Virus record (IMG/VR): IMGVR_UViG_3300042888_002665
DNA: 64,000 nucleotides
Reading direction: 5' to 3' (one strand)
From: a virus
Position numbers and translations under genes: made by a program. Positions 44,342-54,485 of this stretch are shown piece by piece. Position 1 is the first letter of the stretch; every line of letters starts with the position of its first letter. The notes below the pieces were generated by a model, which was not told where the DNA came from, ran no database searches, and saw only the letters and a list, made by a program, of their open reading frames with translations.

Positions 44342-44515
44342 TTACTGGACATTCTTAGCAGTATCAGCAGCAGCAGTGTCGGCTACAACTGTATCAGCAG
44401 CAATAGTATCTACTGTAGTTGAATCAGCAGTAGTAGATTCTGTTTTAGAACCACATGATGTAGCTGCTAATGCGATAAATAATGCAACGAATGTTAGTGC
44501 GAATAAATTTTTCAT
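44342..44515 (-). CDS. small lipoprotein with D(S/T) repeats (57 aa, below track cut-off)
   Basis: Manual translation MKNLFALTFVALFIALAATSC-GSKTESTTADSTTVDTIAADTVVADTAAADTAKNVQ. Confidence 0.8.
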   Translation of the reverse strand: MKNLFALTFVALFIALAATSCGSKTESTTADSTTVDTIAADTVVADTAAADTAKNVQ

Positions 44516-46141: not shown

Positions 46142-46776
46142 TATACAAATCGTTTTATGTGATGATCAAATTCAAATCCTGATTTAATCGGTTGATTACC
46201 CATTAATCGTTTAATGTCTGATGTGTGTAGTGGATTTAATCCATTTCCATCTACACCTACATCCATTGTTTTACCTTTACCAATACGCCGATCAGCAGAT
46301 AAGTGAACGTGTCCGTGTAAATGTATTACACCATCATTCATTTTATTCCAAGATATAATTGGGTAATGCATCAAAACATAGTTTTGTTCCCAATCTTTAC
46401 CTTTAACTTCTAACTCTAAGTACTGATTAACTGAAGTAAATAATCCTCTAATACCTTCACGATCGCGTTCGATGTGATGATCATGATTACCTAAAATGAT
46501 ATGTATGTTTCTACAATTAATACGATTACGAAATTGTTCAATCATTTCAAACCCACCAAACGACCAATCACCTAAGTGAAATAGTATATCGTCTTGACCA
46601 ACTGCTGAATTAATTCCATTTACAATTCTATCATTCATTTGATCTAATGTATCAAAATCACGAGTAAATCCATCAGCATTACTCCACCTTGTAGTACCAC
46701 GACATATGTTTGTATGCATATAGTGTGTATCTGAAGTAAAGTACAATTGTTGGGTTGGTTCTAATTTAATTTTCAT
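46141..46776 (-). CDS. calcineurin-like metallophosphoesterase
   Basis: FTSDTH, HLGD, LGNHD, MHYP, HGHVH, DVGVD. Confidence 0.9.
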   Translation of the reverse strand: MKIKLEPTQQLYFTSDTHYMHTNICRGTTRWSNADGFTRDFDTLDQMNDRIVNGINSAVGQDDILFHLGDWSFGGFEMIEQFRNRINCRNIHIILGNHDHHIERDREGIRGLFTSVNQYLELEVKGKDWEQNYVLMHYPIISWNKMNDGVIHLHGHVHLSADRRIGKGKTMDVGVDGNGLNPLHTSDIKRLMGNQPIKSGFEFDHHIKRFV

Positions 46777-46917
46777 GTTTCTGTTTATATCTTATTACAG
46801 CAGCCCATTTTAACCATCCTATAGTTAATGTCCCTCTATTGTATTCTCCCCACCCATTATAATAAGTAATAGCTGGGATTAATTCGAATACATTTACTTG
46901 TTTTTTAAATTCGATTA

Positions 46918-47076
46918 TCATCCTATTTGTGTTTTATCGTCGTCATCTAATCCGAACAAGTCATTACCTGTATAATCAGGGTGGTTCTTATCCATGTAGT
47001 CAAATCCACGTATCCATAACCAAATAAATGGTGATGCTAATAATACAATAAATCCAAACAATGCTAAGAATTCCAT
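46918..47076 (-). CDS. small membrane protein (52 aa)
   Basis: Manual translation MEFLALFGFIVLLASPFIWLWIRG..DKTQIG. Confidence 0.55.
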   Translation of the reverse strand: MEFLALFGFIVLLASPFIWLWIRGFDYMDKNHPDYTGNDLFGLDDDDKTQIG

Positions 47077-47243
47077 ACTTCAAACGATGTTTTTGATTTA
47101 TTCTGCTTTAATTCAGTTAAATTATACTTACGCATATATTCTTGTTTTTGGCGAGTATAATACGCTTTTAATTCTTTATCAATATGATCATCCCATCCTA
47201 TAGGAGTAGATTGAATATTAAAGATATCCTTTTTAGCTGTCAT
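47064..47243 (-). CDS. small hypothetical protein (59 aa)
   Basis: Manual translation MTAKKDIF..EVWNS; promoter at 47262. Confidence 0.55.
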   Translation of the reverse strand: MTAKKDIFNIQSTPIGWDDHIDKELKAYYTRQKQEYMRKYNLTELKQNKSKTSFEVWNS

Positions 47244-47261
47244 AATGTTTGTTTTTATATT

Positions 47262-47298
47262 CTAAAAATAATAAAGAAAAGGGGCCGAAGCCCCCTTT
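47262..47298 (-). terminator. cUUCGg terminator fused to promoter motif
   Basis: Minus strand GGGGC-TTCG-GCCCC then TTTTCTTTATTATTTTTAG. Confidence 0.8.
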
Positions 47299-47301
47299 CT
47301 A

Positions 47302-48105
47302 TTAAGCTACTTCAGCGTATTCGCTTACATACTGATCGGCTAACTCCCATAATTCGGAATTGAATTCGATGTTCTGTGTGAAGTTCTTCAACGCTCTTGC
47401 TTTGCGTGTTTTGCCTTTTTCGTTTTGGTAATTAAATCCACCACCAACTAGCTTCTCCTGAACGCGGTTCAAAATTGCCCACATTGACATACCAGCATCT
47501 TCTTTACGTTCAACTAACAGTAATTGATCTGTATTAATTTCTTTCAAATTATCTCCAAAACGTAATTGAGCTGCTTTAGCTGCAAACGCATTAGCCATTT
47601 CATCTGAAATAGTTACATTGTTGAATTTATTAATACGGCCTACTACATCAGGTAATTTTTCAACCATTGTATGAATTAATGAACGTAATGCTTCAAAATC
47701 ATAACCTTGATGACGGATCTTTAATGTGCCCATATCTTGGTCTTTAATTACTAAACCATTCGAACACACTAAACGGAATATACCTACCTCGAATCGGAAT
47801 GTAGACGAGCCGTCGTGTGAATTGGTTAATAAAATTTCAATATATGAATCAACATTACCATCTGCATCAGCCATATACACACCCTCATTACGGAATTTAA
47901 CTAAGTGCTTTTTAATTGCTGAATTACCACCTTTACGGGCCTTAACACCAAGTGCTTGAATTGGTTCCCATCCTAATTTTCTCATGTCTTCAACTACCTG
48001 AATGGTAGGAATCTGAGTGTAGTGATCTGATAAACCGGCCTTGTGCTCGGTTGACATTACTGCGGGTGCGATCGCTTGGATCTGCTCGTTTGATAAAATG
48101 TTCAT
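47302..48105 (-). CDS. DUF932/DUF945 family protein
   Basis: APAV..S.HYTQIPT; LLTNSHDGSS; GIFRLVCSNGL; W..LNRVQE. Confidence 0.85.
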   Translation of the reverse strand: MNILSNEQIQAIAPAVMSTEHKAGLSDHYTQIPTIQVVEDMRKLGWEPIQALGVKARKGGNSAIKKHLVKFRNEGVYMADADGNVDSYIEILLTNSHDGSSTFRFEVGIFRLVCSNGLVIKDQDMGTLKIRHQGYDFEALRSLIHTMVEKLPDVVGRINKFNNVTISDEMANAFAAKAAQLRFGDNLKEINTDQLLLVERKEDAGMSMWAILNRVQEKLVGGGFNYQNEKGKTRKARALKNFTQNIEFNSELWELADQYVSEYAEVA

Positions 48106-48161
48106 ATTTTGTTTATTTATTTGTTTTACAAATTAAAGATAATAAGGAAATTCTCACTTTC

Positions 48162-48374
48162 CTAGAATTTATAAGTAGTTTCTTCAATATCTTCACTTGA
48201 TCCTTGTCTAACAGGACGAGTCGAAATCGGGGAAATTGAATAGCCTATAGTTTCAAGCATTGCGTTCAAGTTAGCTACTTTAGGGTATGCCATTTTTTCT
48301 AATTCAGAGCCGATACCTTTAAGTAAAAGCATCTCTTTGTAATCGCGTGTTGTTTTTTTGTTTGTACTCTCCAT
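48162..48374 (-). CDS. hypothetical protein
   Basis: ORF track; promoter at 48412. Confidence 0.6.
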   Translation of the reverse strand: MESTNKKTTRDYKEMLLLKGIGSELEKMAYPKVANLNAMLETIGYSISPISTRPVRQGSSEDIEETTYKF

Positions 48375-48431
48375 TTTGTTTGTTTTTTAAATTGAAAATT
48401 TATTTTATAAGGTAAATATAATAAGGAAATC

Positions 48432-49052
48432 TTATATTGATCTGTATGCTTGACTAATTCGTTTAGCGACTAGTTCTTTATAATCATCAGCAGCAGCGAT
48501 AAATTCACCACGTGACGCATTCCATAATACTAATTCAGCTTTACGTCTGCGTACTAATCCTTTACGAACACGTCCACCTGCTAATTTATATTGAGATAGA
48601 TACGGTTCAATGTTACGTCCACGCTTAATTGCTCTACCTAATCCATCAGTGGTAAAACGCATTCCGATGTTGTAGGCAATCATTGATGTTAATATAATCT
48701 TTTTACGTGATTTTAATTCTGGGAAACGACGTTTAACGTCTTTAATGAATTTAGCATAATCCTTATCAAATAATTCATCTGCTTGCTTAACTGAAATGCC
48801 ATTACGGTATAAACGGCGTTCCTTTCTGGTCATGACGTGACCCCACCCAATGGTCCATTTACCGCCTGGGCATTTATACGGTTTTAATTTTAATGATTCT
48901 TCTGATTTGATAAATAAAGCAGCGGTGTTGTAGAGTTTGTCGTCTGATGTGTCTACTGCTTCGATAATTGGGGGTTCGACTTTGGGTTTGTGTTTGTCGT
49001 TATAACCTACCCACAATGCGGCTAGCATAGCCGTTATGACTATTTTCTTCAT
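48432..49052 (-). CDS. phage lysozyme (GH24 muramidase) with N-terminal hydrophobic segment
   Basis: EESLKLKPYKCPGGKWTIGWGH (E..C..T catalytic set), AYNIG, GLVRRRKAE. Confidence 0.9.
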   Translation of the reverse strand: MKKIVITAMLAALWVGYNDKHKPKVEPPIIEAVDTSDDKLYNTAALFIKSEESLKLKPYKCPGGKWTIGWGHVMTRKERRLYRNGISVKQADELFDKDYAKFIKDVKRRFPELKSRKKIILTSMIAYNIGMRFTTDGLGRAIKRGRNIEPYLSQYKLAGGRVRKGLVRRRKAELVLWNASRGEFIAAADDYKELVAKRISQAYRSI

Positions 49053-49085
49053 AAGTAATGTTGGTTAAATTGTTAAACTTATAAT

Positions 49086-49123
49086 CTAAAGTTAATTAAG
49101 AGAACCTTAGTTTCCTAAGGTTC
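49086..49123 (-). terminator. GNRA stem-loop fused to promoter motif
   Basis: Minus strand GAACCTTAG-GAAA-CTAAGGTTC then TCTTAATTAACTTTAG. Confidence 0.7.
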
Positions 49124-49232
49124 ATCTTCAAATTCGGGATATCCGTATCCACTTTCAATCCATTCTTCTAATTCTAACTTCATGGTCTTATCTTTTAGTA
49201 CGTAGTAAAGATAATAAAGAAACTTTAAATTA

Positions 49233-50435
49233 CTAATTTCCTTTTGTAGGGAATTTAGTCCAACCATTAGTCCAAGTTGGTTTTGCTAAAGTTTCAATTT
49301 CAGTTGCAGTTAAAGTTATTTCAGTATTACCTTCACTTAATGCTTTCGTTTTAACCAAATCAGATGTTATAATAGTAGTTGCTTTACTAATGAAGTTTAA
49401 TCCATTAAATGAACCTATTTTATTATTCTGAAATTTACTTATACCATCTTTGTAGAATTGTGCTGTCTCATTACTTTCCATACTAAATCCACCTTTCATA
49501 TATCCAATGATTGTAGAGTTATATACTTCAAATTGAGTTGCTCTTCTCCAACGCATTGCTAAATTATGATTAGTTAAAGCAGTAGCATCATTTGGTCCAA
49601 TTAAAATGATACCATCTAAAATAGGATGTGTGAATGGTTCTGCTGTTGAACCTGTTCCATCATTATCACATTCTACACCATTACCCGCATCACCATTATC
49701 TACAAATTGTGGATCTCTTTTAGAAACTGAATTAGATACCTTACCTCTATATCCAAAATCAAAATCGTAATCATCATCAGCAGTTCCGTATGCATATAAG
49801 TTTTTAGCATTTACAGTTCCACCAAAGAATTCAAATGCATCATCATTTGCATAGATTGTCTGTACATTTTCAATTGTTGTTCCACTACCAACACCACCTA
49901 ATGTTAATGCATTGATTTCAGAGTTTGGCATTGCTGCAATACCAGCATATTCAATACGAACATATTTTAGAATACCACTATTATCTAAATCATTTGTTCC
50001 ACCGAACGCTCTACCAATACCACCTTCGATGGTTGGTTCTGAAGTGCGATTTGTTTTAGCTCTACCTAAAATAACAATTCCACCCCAATCACCTGGTGTT
50101 CTTTCACCTGCTGGTCTGCCTGATGTAAATATAATTGGTTTAGCTGCAGTTCCTTCTGCTACAATTTGTGCTCCTCTTTCAATACATAATGCGCCCTTCT
50201 CACTTATATCCGATTTGATAATTGTGCCAGGTTGAATGATAAGTTTAGCACCATCGGTTACATAAACATATCCTTTTAATATCCATTCTTTATCCGATGT
50301 AAGAGTTGTAGTTGTGGTAATATTACCAGTTAAAGTTGTTGATGTTGGTACATTGATTGGTGTAACTTCTCCACCTAAATCCTTTGAACATGCAAACATT
50401 GTTAAACTTGCGAACAATACTAATAATTTTTTCAT
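49233..50435 (-). CDS. surface lipoprotein, parallel beta-helix, TBDT partner
   Basis: Lipobox MFAC-SKD; GT...PIIFTS..PGDWGGIVILG, DNSGILKYVRIEYAG, DDAFEFFGG, DDDYDFD. Confidence 0.85.
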   Translation of the reverse strand: MKKLLVLFASLTMFACSKDLGGEVTPINVPTSTTLTGNITTTTTLTSDKEWILKGYVYVTDGAKLIIQPGTIIKSDISEKGALCIERGAQIVAEGTAAKPIIFTSGRPAGERTPGDWGGIVILGRAKTNRTSEPTIEGGIGRAFGGTNDLDNSGILKYVRIEYAGIAAMPNSEINALTLGGVGSGTTIENVQTIYANDDAFEFFGGTVNAKNLYAYGTADDDYDFDFGYRGKVSNSVSKRDPQFVDNGDAGNGVECDNDGTGSTAEPFTHPILDGIILIGPNDATALTNHNLAMRWRRATQFEVYNSTIIGYMKGGFSMESNETAQFYKDGISKFQNNKIGSFNGLNFISKATTIITSDLVKTKALSEGNTEITLTATEIETLAKPTWTNGWTKFPTKGN

Positions 50436-52921
50436 AGGTTGTAATTTAGTGTTATTGAAACTGTTGTTTCGTTATTGGTTTTTATTAAAGTACGATTTGG
50501 TTTTTGGTAATATTCAAATGGTTGTCTGAATATATCCGATACTGCTAATTTAATTTCTCCGTTTTTAATTTTACGAAGAATAACAATATCAACTACATCA
50601 CGAGAGTTCTCAAATATATCAGGATATCCTTGAAATCCTACTGCTGATATTCTATCTCCAACTCTATTATATGATATGTTGAATGTATTGTTATTTTTAT
50701 GTAAGTTCAATCCACCATTTAGTACATAGTTTGATTGTCCTTGCAATTGTCTTTTAACTCCGTTTATATCAACTTCCGAATTGATGAATGATGTGTTTGA
50801 ATATAAATCTAACCAATCATTTAATTTTTTACGAAGTTCAATCTCAACTCCATATACCAATGCCTCATTTGGATTTTTATATGTTAGTAAAAGGTTTGAT
50901 GGAACTGAACCATCTGCTACAACTTGCTCAATTGGATTGAAGAACTTTTTACCAAAGAAACCGATTGATATGTTCTCACCTGATTTAGGATACAACTCAA
51001 ACTTTATATCTGAATTGAATATATCCGTTTTTTGTAAGTTTGGATTTCCTAATAGTTGTGCGTTTCTAACAAAATCATAATATGCAAAATTAGCTACCTC
51101 TCTAAACTCTGGTCTTGCTAATGTTTTACTTACGGATAATCTAACCTTTGTTTTTTCCGATGTAGAATAGGTTGCGTTTAATGATGGTAGTAAATCCAAA
51201 TACTCTCTATCTACTGAAATCCGTTGTCCACCAAAATCAGATGTTTGAACTTTGAATAAATTATATTCCGTTCTAAATCCGGTATTCAATTTTAGTTTAT
51301 CAATTTCCTTTTCATACATTATATATGCATTTGCTAAATCAAAATCGGCAGTATATCTATCCGTATTGTTTGTAATTTCATTTAATAAATCAGTTGATTC
51401 ATATCTGAATATTCTTGCTTTGAAGTTTCTCAATTTCTTCAAATACCCCACTCCTAAACGAATATCTCCTATGGATTTGTTTAATCCCCCATTGAATGAG
51501 TTTTCATCCATTACACTCCAAAAACGATAGGTGTCTCTCCATGCTATTGAGTAAGGAGTTGATGTGTATAAAGATGATATGTAAGGTGTTACTCTATAAT
51601 CAGGTTGGTCTCTTAACATAAGATTATATCCTATATTAAAATCCCATGTTTTAATCTTACCTTCAAATTGTGTATTGAATACTAACTTTTGAATTGAGTT
51701 AGATGATTTACTATCTACATACTGAACATTATCATAGTTTTCACCAACTCTACTTAAAAATGATTTTTCGTTTTGGTAGTTAGCAAGTGTTTTCCAACTA
51801 TAACGATTCTCACCTAAATAAACTATATTTAATAATCCATTTAATGATTGTATATTTGAATAGTTCTGGTCTTTATATTTGTATGCTAATTCTGTTGATG
51901 ATTGATAATCTATTCTTTCGGTTGTGTTAGCTGAAAATGTGTTTCTTGCAGTTGAACTGAATAAGATGTTCCATTTGTTTTTCGCAACACCAAATGATAA
52001 GTTACCATTTAAGTTTGGAATAGATGTTGATGTTTCGGTTTGAGGTGAACCTATTAGTTTAGTGTATGCTCTTCTATCACCTATACCTGCTATTCGGTAT
52101 CCATTTGTTGATGGAAATGATGTTGGGAATTGTATTGGGTCTACCAACCTAAAATCCTGTCCTGTTGATAATGAACCCCAACTTCCTCCCAATGATATAT
52201 TAAAGAAATCACCACTAACTTCTTTTGTTGTTATTTGGACTAATCCACCTGCAAAGTCGCCTGGTAGATTTGCCGATGCTCCTTTATTAATGATGATATT
52301 ATCTATAAGTGATGCTGGGATAATATCAAATGAGAATGCTCTTCTATCGGGTTCGGTTGATGGTAGGATTGATTTGTTTAGTAGAGCCGAGTTGTATCTA
52401 TCAGCTAAACCTCTAACTAAAACAAACTTATCATTTTGGATTGTTACACCACTAACTCTTTTAAGTGCATCTCCAACAGTTCTATCTGGTGTTTTCTTTA
52501 TTGATTCGATTGATAAACCATCTGCTACAATGTAAGATGTTTTAAGTGTGTTGATAAGTGCAGTTGCAGTTTCTTTCTTTACTACTTGCCTTACCATAAC
52601 TTCTTGTAATATCTTTATATCTTCTTTTAACTGAATGTTAAAGTTAGTTGTAGTATCAATTGTAATATCTTTGATATATTCTTTGTATCCAACAAATGAT
52701 GCTTTAATTGAATAGTTACCAATAGGTACATTACTAAAGATATATCTTGAGTCTATATCAGAAGTTGTACCTATTTTTTTATTTGTGTCTTTATTTGTTA
52801 ACCAAACTGTTACACCTATTAAATCTTCTTTTTGGGTTTTTGTGCTGCCGGTTAAATTTACTTGAGCAACTAAAGGGAAAACTAAAAAATAACTAATTAA
52901 AAAACTAAGTAATAACTTCAT
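50432..52921 (-). CDS. TonB-dependent outer-membrane transporter (CarboxypepD_reg-like N-domain, plug, barrel)
   Basis: Signal peptide ending LVA|Q; GTTSDIDSRYIF; plug DALKRVSGVT..LVRGL.DRY..LP..FSFDIIP..ID.I.I.KG; barrel LARPEFRE, GNPNL, YGVEIE, LQGQSNY; C-terminal ITLNYNL. Confidence 0.93.
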   Translation of the reverse strand: MKLLLSFLISYFLVFPLVAQVNLTGSTKTQKEDLIGVTVWLTNKDTNKKIGTTSDIDSRYIFSNVPIGNYSIKASFVGYKEYIKDITIDTTTNFNIQLKEDIKILQEVMVRQVVKKETATALINTLKTSYIVADGLSIESIKKTPDRTVGDALKRVSGVTIQNDKFVLVRGLADRYNSALLNKSILPSTEPDRRAFSFDIIPASLIDNIIINKGASANLPGDFAGGLVQITTKEVSGDFFNISLGGSWGSLSTGQDFRLVDPIQFPTSFPSTNGYRIAGIGDRRAYTKLIGSPQTETSTSIPNLNGNLSFGVAKNKWNILFSSTARNTFSANTTERIDYQSSTELAYKYKDQNYSNIQSLNGLLNIVYLGENRYSWKTLANYQNEKSFLSRVGENYDNVQYVDSKSSNSIQKLVFNTQFEGKIKTWDFNIGYNLMLRDQPDYRVTPYISSLYTSTPYSIAWRDTYRFWSVMDENSFNGGLNKSIGDIRLGVGYLKKLRNFKARIFRYESTDLLNEITNNTDRYTADFDLANAYIMYEKEIDKLKLNTGFRTEYNLFKVQTSDFGGQRISVDREYLDLLPSLNATYSTSEKTKVRLSVSKTLARPEFREVANFAYYDFVRNAQLLGNPNLQKTDIFNSDIKFELYPKSGENISIGFFGKKFFNPIEQVVADGSVPSNLLLTYKNPNEALVYGVEIELRKKLNDWLDLYSNTSFINSEVDINGVKRQLQGQSNYVLNGGLNLHKNNNTFNISYNRVGDRISAVGFQGYPDIFENSRDVVDIVILRKIKNGEIKLAVSDIFRQPFEYYQKPNRTLIKTNNETTVSITLNYNL

Positions 52922-52943
52922 CTATATTGGGTTTTAAATCCAT

Positions 52944-53000
52944 GTATAGATATAAAAGAAAATATTACTAAACAACGTCTAATATTACTATTGTATTACT
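52944..53000 (-). promoter_or_regulatory. degenerate promoter preceded by AGTAATA(C/T) direct repeats (Pho-box-like)
   Basis: Repeats at 53000-52993, 52989-52982 and 52969-52962 directly upstream of TTTCTTTTATATCTATAC (13 of 18 matches to a typical copy of the common motif). Confidence 0.4.
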
Positions 53001-53532
53001 CTACGAGTTTATAAATTTCGTCTAAACAGCGTCCTTGCTCATCGTAGTCTAATCCAAAACCAATAATAAACTCATCATCGGTTAATTCCATTCCTACGTA
53101 ATCAACAACCACATTAGTCTTGTAATTCTTGGGGCGTGTAAATAAAGAACATATTTTAACGCTATTAACTTGCTTCTCATTAATTAGATAGTCTTTTAAT
53201 TCAACCATTGTCAAGCCTGTCTCAACAATATCCTCGACTATAATTATATTACGTTTATAGAGATCGCGGGATATTCCAAGAACTTGTTTTACAGTGCCTG
53301 TAGATTCGATACCTTCATATGATGACAATCTAACGAATTCTAATTCTGGACTTAATGGATATAATTGTTCAGCTAGATGCGCTCCGAATATACCTGCTCC
53401 CTTTAATACTATAACTAATACTGGATTGTAGTTTTGATCATGTATTATTTCCATTGCTAATGCCTTAACCATAGCATTTAGCTTTTGTTTTGGTATTAGT
53501 GGTTCGAAATGTTTATCTTTTATCTTTAGCAT
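52996..53532 (-). CDS. hpt: hypoxanthine(-guanine) phosphoribosyltransferase
   Basis: VLKGA.IF, LSSYEG, IIVEDIVETGLT (PRPP loop), FIIGFGLDY..GR.L. Confidence 0.93.
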   Translation of the reverse strand: MLKIKDKHFEPLIPKQKLNAMVKALAMEIIHDQNYNPVLVIVLKGAGIFGAHLAEQLYPLSPELEFVRLSSYEGIESTGTVKQVLGISRDLYKRNIIIVEDIVETGLTMVELKDYLINEKQVNSVKICSLFTRPKNYKTNVVVDYVGMELTDDEFIIGFGLDYDEQGRCLDEIYKLVE

Positions 53533-53642
53533 GTTCTCGTTTCAAATCCTCAGCTATTTGCTTAATAATTTCGTCTGGTGTCAGTACTAATAGAGTATTT
53601 AATTTGTATTGTCCTCTATATTTGTCGTATGAAGTAAGTACT

Positions 53643-53858
53643 TCACGAATTAGGCTCTCCGTTATCGGAGTTTGAATATCGTTCTGCATAACCTATTGTA
53701 TGATGTGTTGTTGTTATTTTATGTCCCATATTGTATGGGTTGTAGTTTATTTCTAATGTCAATGTAGATAAATCATCATCTTCACATTGTATGTATAAAT
53801 CATCTAATGCTTTTATAAGCATACGACGTTGAGCCCGTTTAACTTCTTTATAGGTCAT
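53643..53858 (-). CDS. hypothetical protein
   Basis: ORF track. Confidence 0.55.
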   Translation of the reverse strand: MTYKEVKRAQRRMLIKALDDLYIQCEDDDLSTLTLEINYNPYNMGHKITTTHHTIGYAERYSNSDNGEPNS

Positions 53859-53860
53859 AA

Positions 53861-54121
53861 TTAATCTACAAAGTCGCTTACATTTTCATCAGCGAATAGA
53901 TCTTCTGGAAATTCCTCGTAATCATCGTCATCATCTAGTAAATCTTCATCTGCCCAAATTACTTCCCATTTATCACCATCCAATTCATTTAATGGATCAA
54001 TGATTTCTTCTAATCCATAGTATTCTAGATCCTCCTCATATGTTTCGTTATAAGCGATGTTATCGATGTCAACATCAAGTGGAGTTTTTGGATCGCGTGG
54101 TTTATAAGTCTGTGATTGCAT
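53861..54121 (-). CDS. extremely acidic small protein (possible DNA mimic)
   Basis: Asp/Glu-dominated sequence with interspersed aromatics. Confidence 0.55.
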   Translation of the reverse strand: MQSQTYKPRDPKTPLDVDIDNIAYNETYEEDLEYYGLEEIIDPLNELDGDKWEVIWADEDLLDDDDDYEEFPEDLFADENVSDFVD

Positions 54122-54485
54122 CTACAATTGATTTTTTAAGTTTTTTACGAGTAAATTTAATTGTTGGTACTAATTCCTTTAATTTAATAACCTTAGCACA
54201 ATACTCATATTCTTCTGCTTCTTCTAATGTTGGTAGACAGCCATCTAAATTCTCTAAATAATCAGTATCGTCCATTGCTAATGATGTAGCCATATTCATA
54301 CCTCCTATTGTTGGTGACAATATGATACAAGCAATAACATATTTTACCTTGTATCTACAAGCAAATTCGACCGCTTTAACAGTTTGTTTAGCAATTTCCA
54401 ACCTGTATTCAGGTCCGGGTGTGCCAAACTTACCTCCTTTAATTATAAGGGGTTCAAACGGATCGAATTCGTCTTGTTCTTTCAT
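54102..54485 (-). CDS. hypothetical protein with UVR-like C-terminal motif
   Basis: LEEAEEYEYCAKVIKLKE. Confidence 0.55.
   Translation of the reverse strand: MKEQDEFDPFEPLIIKGGKFGTPGPEYRLEIAKQTVKAVEFACRYKVKYVIACIILSPTIGGMNMATSLAMDDTDYLENLDGCLPTLEEAEEYEYCAKVIKLKELVPTIKFTRKKLKKSIVDAITDL

Follow-up and report, generated by a model that had tools for sequence, protein, structure and literature searches.

A gene for an outer-membrane transporter of bacterial type among phage genes raises the question of whether it belongs to the virus and, if so, what it does there. The window (the whole stretch of DNA analysed, 64,000 nucleotides) carries such a gene on the minus strand, a TonB-dependent transporter (TBDT) gene (50432-52921, 829 aa), joined by an ATGA overlap to a lipoprotein gene (49233-50435, 400 aa). 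Both open reading frames were intact and lay exactly where the initial annotation had put them.

Viral context, spread and selection

The source of the window is a large myovirus-like lake phage. Phage genes in the window included those for a baseplate wedge, primase, exonuclease and endolysin, and the endolysin gene was the next one downstream of the lipoprotein gene. The minus strand has 21 occurrences of a promoter-like motif and the plus strand none. A strong copy (minus strand, 49198-49221) directly past the lipoprotein stop codon delimits the two-gene unit on its downstream side, and a weak copy was located upstream of the TBDT gene at -40 (minus strand, 52938-52961), with a score reached by only 38 of the ~64,000 minus-strand positions. 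Generic sigma-70 promoter scans gave matches no commoner than in shuffled sequences. On the other side of the weak copy lies an HGPRT-like hpt gene (minus strand, 52996-53532; TIGR01203 at 131 bits, under the cut-off of 150), which gave no usable pointer to the host (35-38% identity, and none found in A. avitistagni).

Since the genes are of bacterial type with close Aquirufa homologues, contamination with host DNA, a chimeric assembly and passenger genes in decay had to be considered. Exact contigs from an independent DNA run (46559-49674 and 52434-54449) spanned both module junctions, and no chimeric join was found. GC3 of the TBDT and lipoprotein genes was 0.20 and 0.135, which is phage-like, as it was 0.17 for the other window genes and ~0.35/0.32 for the Aquirufa copies. 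Three RNA runs yielded only short contigs of relatives, scattered across many phage genes. A survey for the pair showed at least 54 distinct phage copies in varied neighbourhoods, with the TBDT directly upstream of the beta-helix lipoprotein in all phage loci whose upstream sequence was long enough. The 54 intact copies formed their own clade or grade, and dN/dS of the pair was ~0.06-0.18, which is far under 1 and indicates purifying rather than relaxed selection. Plug windows were among the most conserved parts (dN/dS 0.02-0.06) and no 40-codon window exceeded 0.53. The pair is bona fide viral, intact and under purifying selection; contamination, chimerism or a passenger is vanishingly improbable and already refuted by the bridging contigs, dN/dS and GC3. 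The initial annotation had likewise ruled out host contamination from the surrounding phage genes and promoters.

The neighbours of the pair varied among phages. A GT2 gene and a PlcP-like gene followed it in 8 of 53 other phage loci, and hpt adjoined it in one of the 53, that one being a near twin. Reading of the sequence also placed a small, putatively FeoA-like ORF beside some copies.

Properties of the two proteins

The product of the upstream gene is, from its sequence, a TonB-dependent transporter with signal, TonB box, plug and C-terminal barrel all present, and transport is predicted. Its Sec signal (residues 1-19) ends LVA|Q and is followed by an N-terminal extension (PF13715), a TonB-box-like LQEVMV near residue 105 (~104-110), a plug (PF07715, above cut-off) and a barrel (PF14905, E 1e-24); the match to TIGR01782 had an E value of 5e-55, though it was below the cut-off of that model. 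A TonB box of the L-x-E/T/N-V/I-x-V/I type was present in 54 of 54 phage copies, including the 24 that had lost the N-terminal extension. Relative to its bacterial orthologues the phage TBDT is trimmed by ~100 aa, in ~10 short deletions that were common to all phage-type copies examined. Energising proteins were also searched for. TonB and ExbB are not encoded by two related complete phage genomes, and a search of four related phage records detected no member of the TonB, ExbB or PstS families. Host energisers would therefore be needed, and the initial description of a "complete" uptake module was overstated.

The lipoprotein has a lipobox (FA-C17) with Cys17 as lipid anchor, followed by SKD. 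The resemblance of SKD to the Bacteroidota surface-export signal had been pointed out; the motif is there, but with one acidic residue only after the lipid cysteine it is compatible with such a signal rather than a demonstration of it. The protein matched PF28492 (Beta_helix_4) and was predicted to fold as a right-handed beta-helix with a pLDDT of 93 in the alignment-based model, which was used in place of a single-sequence fold with a pLDDT of 37. No SusD Pfam hit was obtained, as expected from the earlier view of the partner as a beta-helix protein. The order of a TBDT gene and then a surface lipoprotein gene is shared with SusCD/PusCD, whereas the partner there is SusD (TPR) and the phage TBDT had no match to SusC models. 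The lipoprotein fold is akin to Ca-dependent lyases and epimerases (Z 21-24), and acidic polysaccharides are the substrates of its nearest structural neighbours. The comparison with polysaccharide lyases and tailspike depolymerases showed likeness at fold level only (Z 19-24, 8-15% identity). A PDB sequence search gave no match, and a close structural match was not found by Foldseek of PDB and BFVD; as no solved homologue is close (10-14% identity), a catalytic role cannot be assigned from the fold. The predicted lipobox argues against a virion tailspike. An acidic cluster (D198/D199/E202 and D220/D221/D224) with conserved Arg was present, and 20 of 20 acidic, Asn and Arg positions checked were invariant in the 54 phage copies. 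Neither protein was matched in a PHROG search.

Phosphate-starvation relatives and the upstream repeat

The phage pair is homologous, by way of synteny, to Fjoh_0545/Fjoh_0546 (FII) of Flavobacterium johnsoniae, which are induced by phosphate (Pi) starvation, in a family (FII/ElpS) that includes Caulobacter ElpS. The response of host orthologues to Pi starvation, raised earlier as a check, is addressed by these ElpS-related genes, whose induction when Pi is depleted reaches log2FC of 8.0 and 9.9 (PMC8115612; PMC2996285). They remain repressed under N or Fe limitation (PMC8115612). The likeness to Fjoh_0545/FII, located in cluster PUSIV of the phoBR region (PMC8115612), comprises gene order, the TBDT Pfams PF07715/PF13715/PF14905 and a pectin-lyase-like lipoprotein. 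It rests on the syntenic pair of Flavobacterium limi, full-length homologues of both phage proteins (TBDT 27% identity, E 4e-52; lipoprotein 34%, E 1e-60), in the order GT28-OprP-PhoR-PhoB-TBDT-lipoprotein with the Pfam sets of Fjoh_0541-0546. The best summed TBDT match in that genome was the phoBR-linked gene, by a narrow margin (143 vs 131 bits). Unlike Fjoh_0545/FII, the phage pair is trimmed, ATGA-coupled and preceded by a phage promoter-like element, and has no adjoining phoBR, OprP or PitA.

Identity of FII to ElpS was reported as 31-36% (PMC8115612), and through it the kinship extends to ElpS (CC0170)/CC0171 of Caulobacter crescentus, where a Pi-starvation surface lipoprotein also co-occurs with a TBDT. 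The Caulobacter system differs in the T2SS-dependent release of ElpS and in the separate regulation of the two genes, with cc0171 being constitutive (PMC2996285). A phosphate gene was found within 8 kb of the pair in 29 of 55 other Bacteroidota loci, and some bacteria carried lipoprotein paralogues without an adjacent TBDT. Neighbours of the pair in Aquirufa are PitA, OprP, phosphonate genes, a gene of the alkaline-phosphatase superfamily and one that is PlcP-like.

A motif learned on 71 bacterial upstream regions showed that a C[GT]TAACA repeat with an 11-bp period occurs upstream of nearly all bacterial copies, including that of F. limi (score 16.1), as well as upstream of Aquirufa PitA (17.6). 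It matches the Riemerella PhoP motif TTTAACA, which is not phosphate-specific there as PhoP of Riemerella is a broad regulator (PMC9603813). Phage TBDT upstream regions had a median score of 9.7 compared with 2.2 for controls (p 5e-21, a value inflated by the relatedness of the phage copies). Most phage copies retain the repeat, and its position stays the same in many different gene surroundings; about one fifth have no clear box. In the window, two AGTAATA units form a degenerate copy (minus strand, 52983-53000) that overlaps the hpt stop codon and lies at -79 from the TBDT start, where phage copies commonly have it (-77 to -80). The Pho-box-like repeats noted initially are thus real and conserved in position, but degenerate here, with a score of 7.9 that ranks within the top 4.4% of upstream controls and is exceeded by at least 30 window sites.

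Predicted role and possible exchange with Aquirufa

The pair is probably an auxiliary importer for phosphate limitation that uses host TonB, a predicted function to which the homology to Fjoh_0545/0546, the host phosphate-gene context and the conserved repeat point. Several observations speak against it: in Caulobacter, deletion of elpS left phosphatase activity unchanged and cc0171 was constitutive (PMC2996285), the repeat in the window is weak and about one fifth of phage copies lack a clear box, the matching Riemerella regulator is a broad one (PMC9603813), and lipoprotein paralogues occur in some bacteria with no adjacent TBDT. These links strengthen the phosphorus part of the earlier proposal of an importer for phosphate-rich substrates. 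Its other part, which took the adjacent hpt as a sign of nucleic-acid fragments, fails since hpt adjoins just one of the other loci; hpt was rejected as a functional partner and is an incidental neighbour outside the module. In an infected Bacteroidota cell short of Pi, host PhoB would bind the repeat and boost the weak phage promoter. The barrel would then be inserted into the outer membrane, and the beta-helix protein displayed at the cell surface, by host Sec, BAM and lipoprotein export. A metal, Ca2+ or another, is probably bound by the acidic cluster of the lipoprotein, which together with the arginines may capture an anionic phosphate-bearing molecule; candidates are organophosphate esters and oligomers, for instance nucleic-acid fragments, polyphosphate or inositol phosphate. 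The TBDT would import this ligand, powered by host TonB-ExbBD, and host periplasmic phosphatases and PitA would supply Pi so that, after shutdown of host gene expression, a phage genome probably 200-300 kb in size can be replicated.

The products of known phage phosphorus genes are periplasmic or cytoplasmic. A parallel in logic is found in cyanophages, where pstS and phoA are Pho-box-controlled auxiliary genes, so that the host phosphate regulator governs a phage uptake gene. Those genes are periplasmic parts of an ABC system, in contrast to the predicted energised outer-membrane importer described here, and no PstS-family gene was found in the two related complete phages. Through the module, the host-regulated scavenging of phosphorus by widespread freshwater phages would come to include energised outer-membrane import, and the module is a naturally minimised version of one of the most strongly Pi-induced, though uncharacterised, Bacteroidota transporters. 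The initial annotation knew of no characterised phage TBDT, which still holds for biochemical characterisation in the literature found, but TBDTs and 22-stranded outer-membrane proteins, including a transcribed Lak phage TBDR, have been reported in huge phages (bioRxiv 10.64898/2026.10.24.761521). Those TBDRs are likewise related to host homologues, and in aquatic phages phosphate-acquisition genes lie near outer-membrane protein genes; the main text of that preprint has nothing on a lipoprotein partner, on FII/ElpS, on a Pho box or on Aquirufa. A literature search for the TBDT-lipoprotein module in phages gave nothing beyond it.

Three other functions were weighed. The trimmed barrel and lipoprotein could displace or mask a host Pi-induced TBDT, a likely phage receptor, and bacteria adopting them would escape phages. 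Such receptor remodelling or superinfection exclusion has been raised for phage outer-membrane proteins generally (bioRxiv 10.64898/2026.10.24.761521), and it is favoured by the deletions common to all phage-type copies examined and by the patchy swapping, in place, of three types at the Aquirufa locus, which resembles receptor-type turnover. A pure decoy, however, would need neither a conserved TonB box and plug nor an invariant acidic site in the lipoprotein; with no window near a dN/dS of 1, selection lends no support to the receptor alteration or decoy offered initially, and this reading is unlikely. Similarly unlikely is that the lipoprotein is an ElpS-like enzyme or phosphatase activator that depolymerises a phosphorus-rich polymer in a metal-dependent way rather than serving as a binding lid, with the TBDT taking up the products. 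The fold shared with Ca-dependent enzymes and the invariant D/E cluster with Arg residues would suit it, as would the increase in extracellular phosphatase activity on ElpS overexpression; against it, ElpS showed no intrinsic phosphatase activity when purified (PMC2996285) and the likeness is one of fold. Even this would remain a phosphorus-acquisition role. A shade less probable still is an importer of a non-phosphorus nutrient (acidic glycan, metal chelate or vitamin) merely descended from a Pho-regulated host operon. The polysaccharide-acting folds, the box decayed in the window and absent in some copies, and the FeoA-like reading beside some copies favour such a nutrient, while the fixed box position through many neighbourhoods, the linked PlcP-like and GT2 genes in 8 loci and the Pi-specific response of the F. 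johnsoniae genes (PMC8115612) oppose it.

Along with the predicted phosphorus role, exchange with bacteria was considered. The trimmed form occurs at the native locus in scattered Aquirufa species, with 6 changes for 7 genomes. In free TBDT trees Aquirufa was nested inside the phage clade, but the AU test left phage monophyly standing (p-AU 0.65) and lipoprotein trees placed the phage and Aquirufa copies as sister groups; nesting is therefore not claimed. GC3 was similar between phage-type and native Aquirufa pairs, leaving no compositional trace of a recent phage origin, and phage-to-host transfer is plausible and unproven. It is tentatively suggested that a guild of large lake phages keeps a streamlined, host-PhoB-controlled phosphorus importer and moves it between unrelated loci, with a donated version displacing the native Aquirufa pair in several lineages. 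If true, the surface with which an abundant freshwater bacterium takes up phosphate is being reshaped by phages. Questions of substrate and receptor are testable without phage, because cultured A. antheringensis and A. avitistagni carry the phage-type allele and close relatives the native allele at the same locus.

The gene pair and its spread among phages

The TonB-dependent transporter (TBDT, 829 aa; 50432-52921, minus strand) carried a signal peptide and an N-terminal extension ahead of its plug and barrel, and its gene was joined by an ATGA overlap to that of a 400-aa lipoprotein (49233-50435, minus strand), a PF28492 member with a lipobox and a predicted right-handed beta-helix fold (pLDDT 93). 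Coordinates, lengths and junction were all as the initial annotation had described. The window also carried phage genes for baseplate wedges, primase, exonuclease and endolysin, and the GC3 of the pair was phage-like, unlike the closest bacterial copies, which agreed with the earlier view that host contamination was not involved. The same protein was carried by a database record of 177 kb, and the runs best matching the stretch were lake and freshwater metagenomes. Exact contigs of one independent run spanned both pair junctions and no chimeric join was found; the phage-borne pair is real, and the probability of an artefact is negligible. In addition, a 57-aa lipoprotein-like ORF at 44342-44515 contained many D-S/T-x triplets resembling Bacteroidota O-glycosylation sites.

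A lipoprotein search of IMG/VR produced 134 stretches, and the TBDT was directly upstream of the lipoprotein at every phage locus with enough sequence. The pair thus recurred in the viral database survey that had been proposed for it, with at least 54 distinct full-length phage copies including the window (identity range 61-99% for the TBDT and 71-97% for the lipoprotein) in highly diverse gene neighbourhoods. Relatives 94% identical from residue 22 on differed in signal peptide, upstream DNA and neighbours, which on sequence grounds indicates that the pair is mobile as a cassette among phages. Comparison of loci L005 and L010 vs L002 and L024 showed TBDTs 91-94% identical to that of the window with lipoproteins of a different subclade (81-83%), which points to recombination between both genes among phages. 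A distant pair (27% identity) in reverse order, lipoprotein then TBDT, was found in the 635-kb GenBank phage LR745206 (L098:13698-17538), near NAMPT-like, Nudix and patatin genes, and was probably captured independently.

Phage phosphorus auxiliary genes and their Pho-box control are already known. The literature search found no paper describing a TBDT and beta-helix lipoprotein pair in phages. A 2026 preprint reported 1,603 huge-phage outer-membrane proteins that include 22-stranded TBDTs; its main text does not mention a lipoprotein partner, its identity or regulation (bioRxiv 10.64898/2026.10.24.761521).

Phosphate-starvation relatives and proposed regulation

Full-length alignments of the window phage proteins with those of Flavobacterium limi gave 34% identity for the lipoprotein (E 1e-60) and 27% for the TBDT (E 4e-52). 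The F. limi locus has the order GT28-OprP-PhoR-PhoB-TBDT-lipoprotein and the same Pfam sets as Fjoh_0541-0546 of F. johnsoniae, where Pi depletion induces Fjoh_0545/0546 (FII) by 8.0 and 9.9 log2-fold (PMC8115612). The same study relates FII to ElpS of Caulobacter (PMC8115612), a Pi-starvation surface lipoprotein whose gene lies beside a TBDT gene (PMC2996285). The closest cellular copies were those of Aquirufa (75-80% and 68-71% identity). Their island also encodes PitA, OprP and GT28, together with PlcP-like and alkaline-phosphatase-superfamily proteins, and includes phosphonate genes. Two records titled Brevundimonas and Citrobacter (L120, L153) held Chitinophagaceae-type loci and are probably mislabelled.

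De novo motif search identified C[GT]TAACA with an 11-bp period in nearly all of 71 bacterial upstream regions, in agreement with the Riemerella PhoP DAP-seq motif TTTAACA (PMC9603813), and the same repeat was found upstream of Aquirufa PitA. Phage TBDT upstream regions had a median repeat score of 9.7 vs 2.2 for other phage upstream regions, with the repeat mostly at -66 to -89. Pho-box-like repeats thus stood out in the phage family as a whole; the window copy noted initially, at -79, was degenerate and unconvincing if taken alone. A strong phage promoter-like motif (consensus TTTCTTAATTATATTTAAAATGTA) had 21 copies on the minus strand of the window (668-56514) and none on the plus strand; it was densest in the small-gene region and a weak copy was present at -40 from the TBDT. 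Together, the two elements suggest a design combining a host switch with a phage promoter, which is likely across the phage family and plausible for the window copy.

Predicted function and companion genes

Purifying values were obtained throughout the dN/dS comparison. Compared pairwise with the window copy, the lipoprotein gene had dN/dS values of 0.06-0.18 and the TBDT gene 0.09-0.16, and the maximum over all informative pairs was 0.28. The plug showed 0.02-0.06 in 40-codon windows, and the highest such value was 0.53, at the signal-peptide region. The N-terminal extension was missing from 24 of 54 phage TBDTs, which still had the TonB box. In the lipoprotein, 20 acidic, Asn or Arg positions were checked, and none varied among the phage copies. 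This pattern is expected of a working energised transporter, here with a putative ligand- or metal-binding partner. Neither TonB nor ExbB was found in the complete genomes of two related phages, so energy must come from the host.

Overall, the pair is best read as an importer for Pi limitation, which we consider fairly probable. PhoB would assist its expression, a metal site of the surface beta-helix protein would capture an anionic phosphate-bearing ligand, TonB would drive uptake, and host phosphatases and PitA would then take over. An enzymatic, ElpS-like role of the lipoprotein is unlikely; the closest solved folds to its model were polysaccharide epimerases, lyases and tailspikes at only 8-15% identity, and ElpS is itself no phosphatase (PMC2996285). 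Remodelling of receptors by the pair is likewise improbable, and import of a non-P substrate is also unlikely. The substrate had initially been guessed partly from hpt, a clue that was lost since hpt adjoined the pair in only one of 53 other loci, a near twin.

A glycosyltransferase and a PlcP-like phosphoesterase (45% identity to the Aquirufa gene) followed the pair in 8 of 53 phage loci. PlcP is described as a lipid-remodelling enzyme of phosphate starvation (PMC4796936), and the two phage genes possibly form a phospholipid-to-glycolipid remodelling module; no case of phage-encoded PlcP-type remodelling was found among the literature matches listed. GT2 and PlcP-like genes were seen just 3' of the lipoprotein at loci L016, L023-L026, L039, L044, L050, L064, L066 and L089, and a FeoA-like 77-aa ORF, recognised by eye, lay between lipoprotein and GT2 in some phages (L039:11248-11481, L044:11116-11349). 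A second, Oar-like TBDT (~1,100 aa, PF25183), unrelated to that of the pair, was located near the pair at three phage loci (L046:3972-7253, L083:4288-7626, L085:3379-6654); its homologue (31%) in the Aquirufa phosphate island stood behind a strong Pho-box-like repeat, which was absent from the three phage copies. Secreted-looking families of about 520 (L032:1453-3015; in 34 loci), 239 (L063:11295-12014), 284 (L059:2898-3752) and 554 aa (L082:768-2432), all recurring beside the pair in many phages, had no Pfam match and may form an envelope-protein cluster.

The trimmed pair in Aquirufa

Approximately 10 deletions were common to the phage TBDTs and the trimmed, phage-type TBDTs of Aquirufa and absent in the longer native Aquirufa versions and other Bacteroidota aligned. 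The 50 Aquirufa genomes with a match had one copy each, with lipoproteins of phage type (~403 aa) in 10, ~443 aa in six and mostly ~595 aa in the remainder, all three types at a single locus. Locus L277 had a native 955/596 pair, and its flanking proteins were mostly 90-99% identical to A. antheringensis or A. esocilacus, both with the phage-type pair. Other Spirosomataceae grouped with the native Aquirufa types (97), and their proteins reached at most ~54% identity to the phage protein. On the rpsD-rpoA-rplQ tree, seven phage-type genomes required six changes, and monophyly of phage-type Aquirufa was rejected (p-AU 1e-89). These groupings and the patchy spread indicate that the trimmed pair is foreign to Aquirufa, where, by the same sequence comparisons, it displaced the native pair repeatedly or spread laterally.

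Outside Aquirufa, phages were the only carriers of the trimmed pair found and are thus its likely reservoir. The proposed phylogeny placed phage and phage-type Aquirufa TBDTs in one long-stemmed clade, but within it the two were sister groups or nested without resolution (p-AU 0.65), and composition of phage-type vs native Aquirufa pairs gave no trace of transfer direction. As to direction, transfer from phage to Aquirufa is plausible, an unsampled bacterial donor is possible, and Aquirufa is a candidate phage host.
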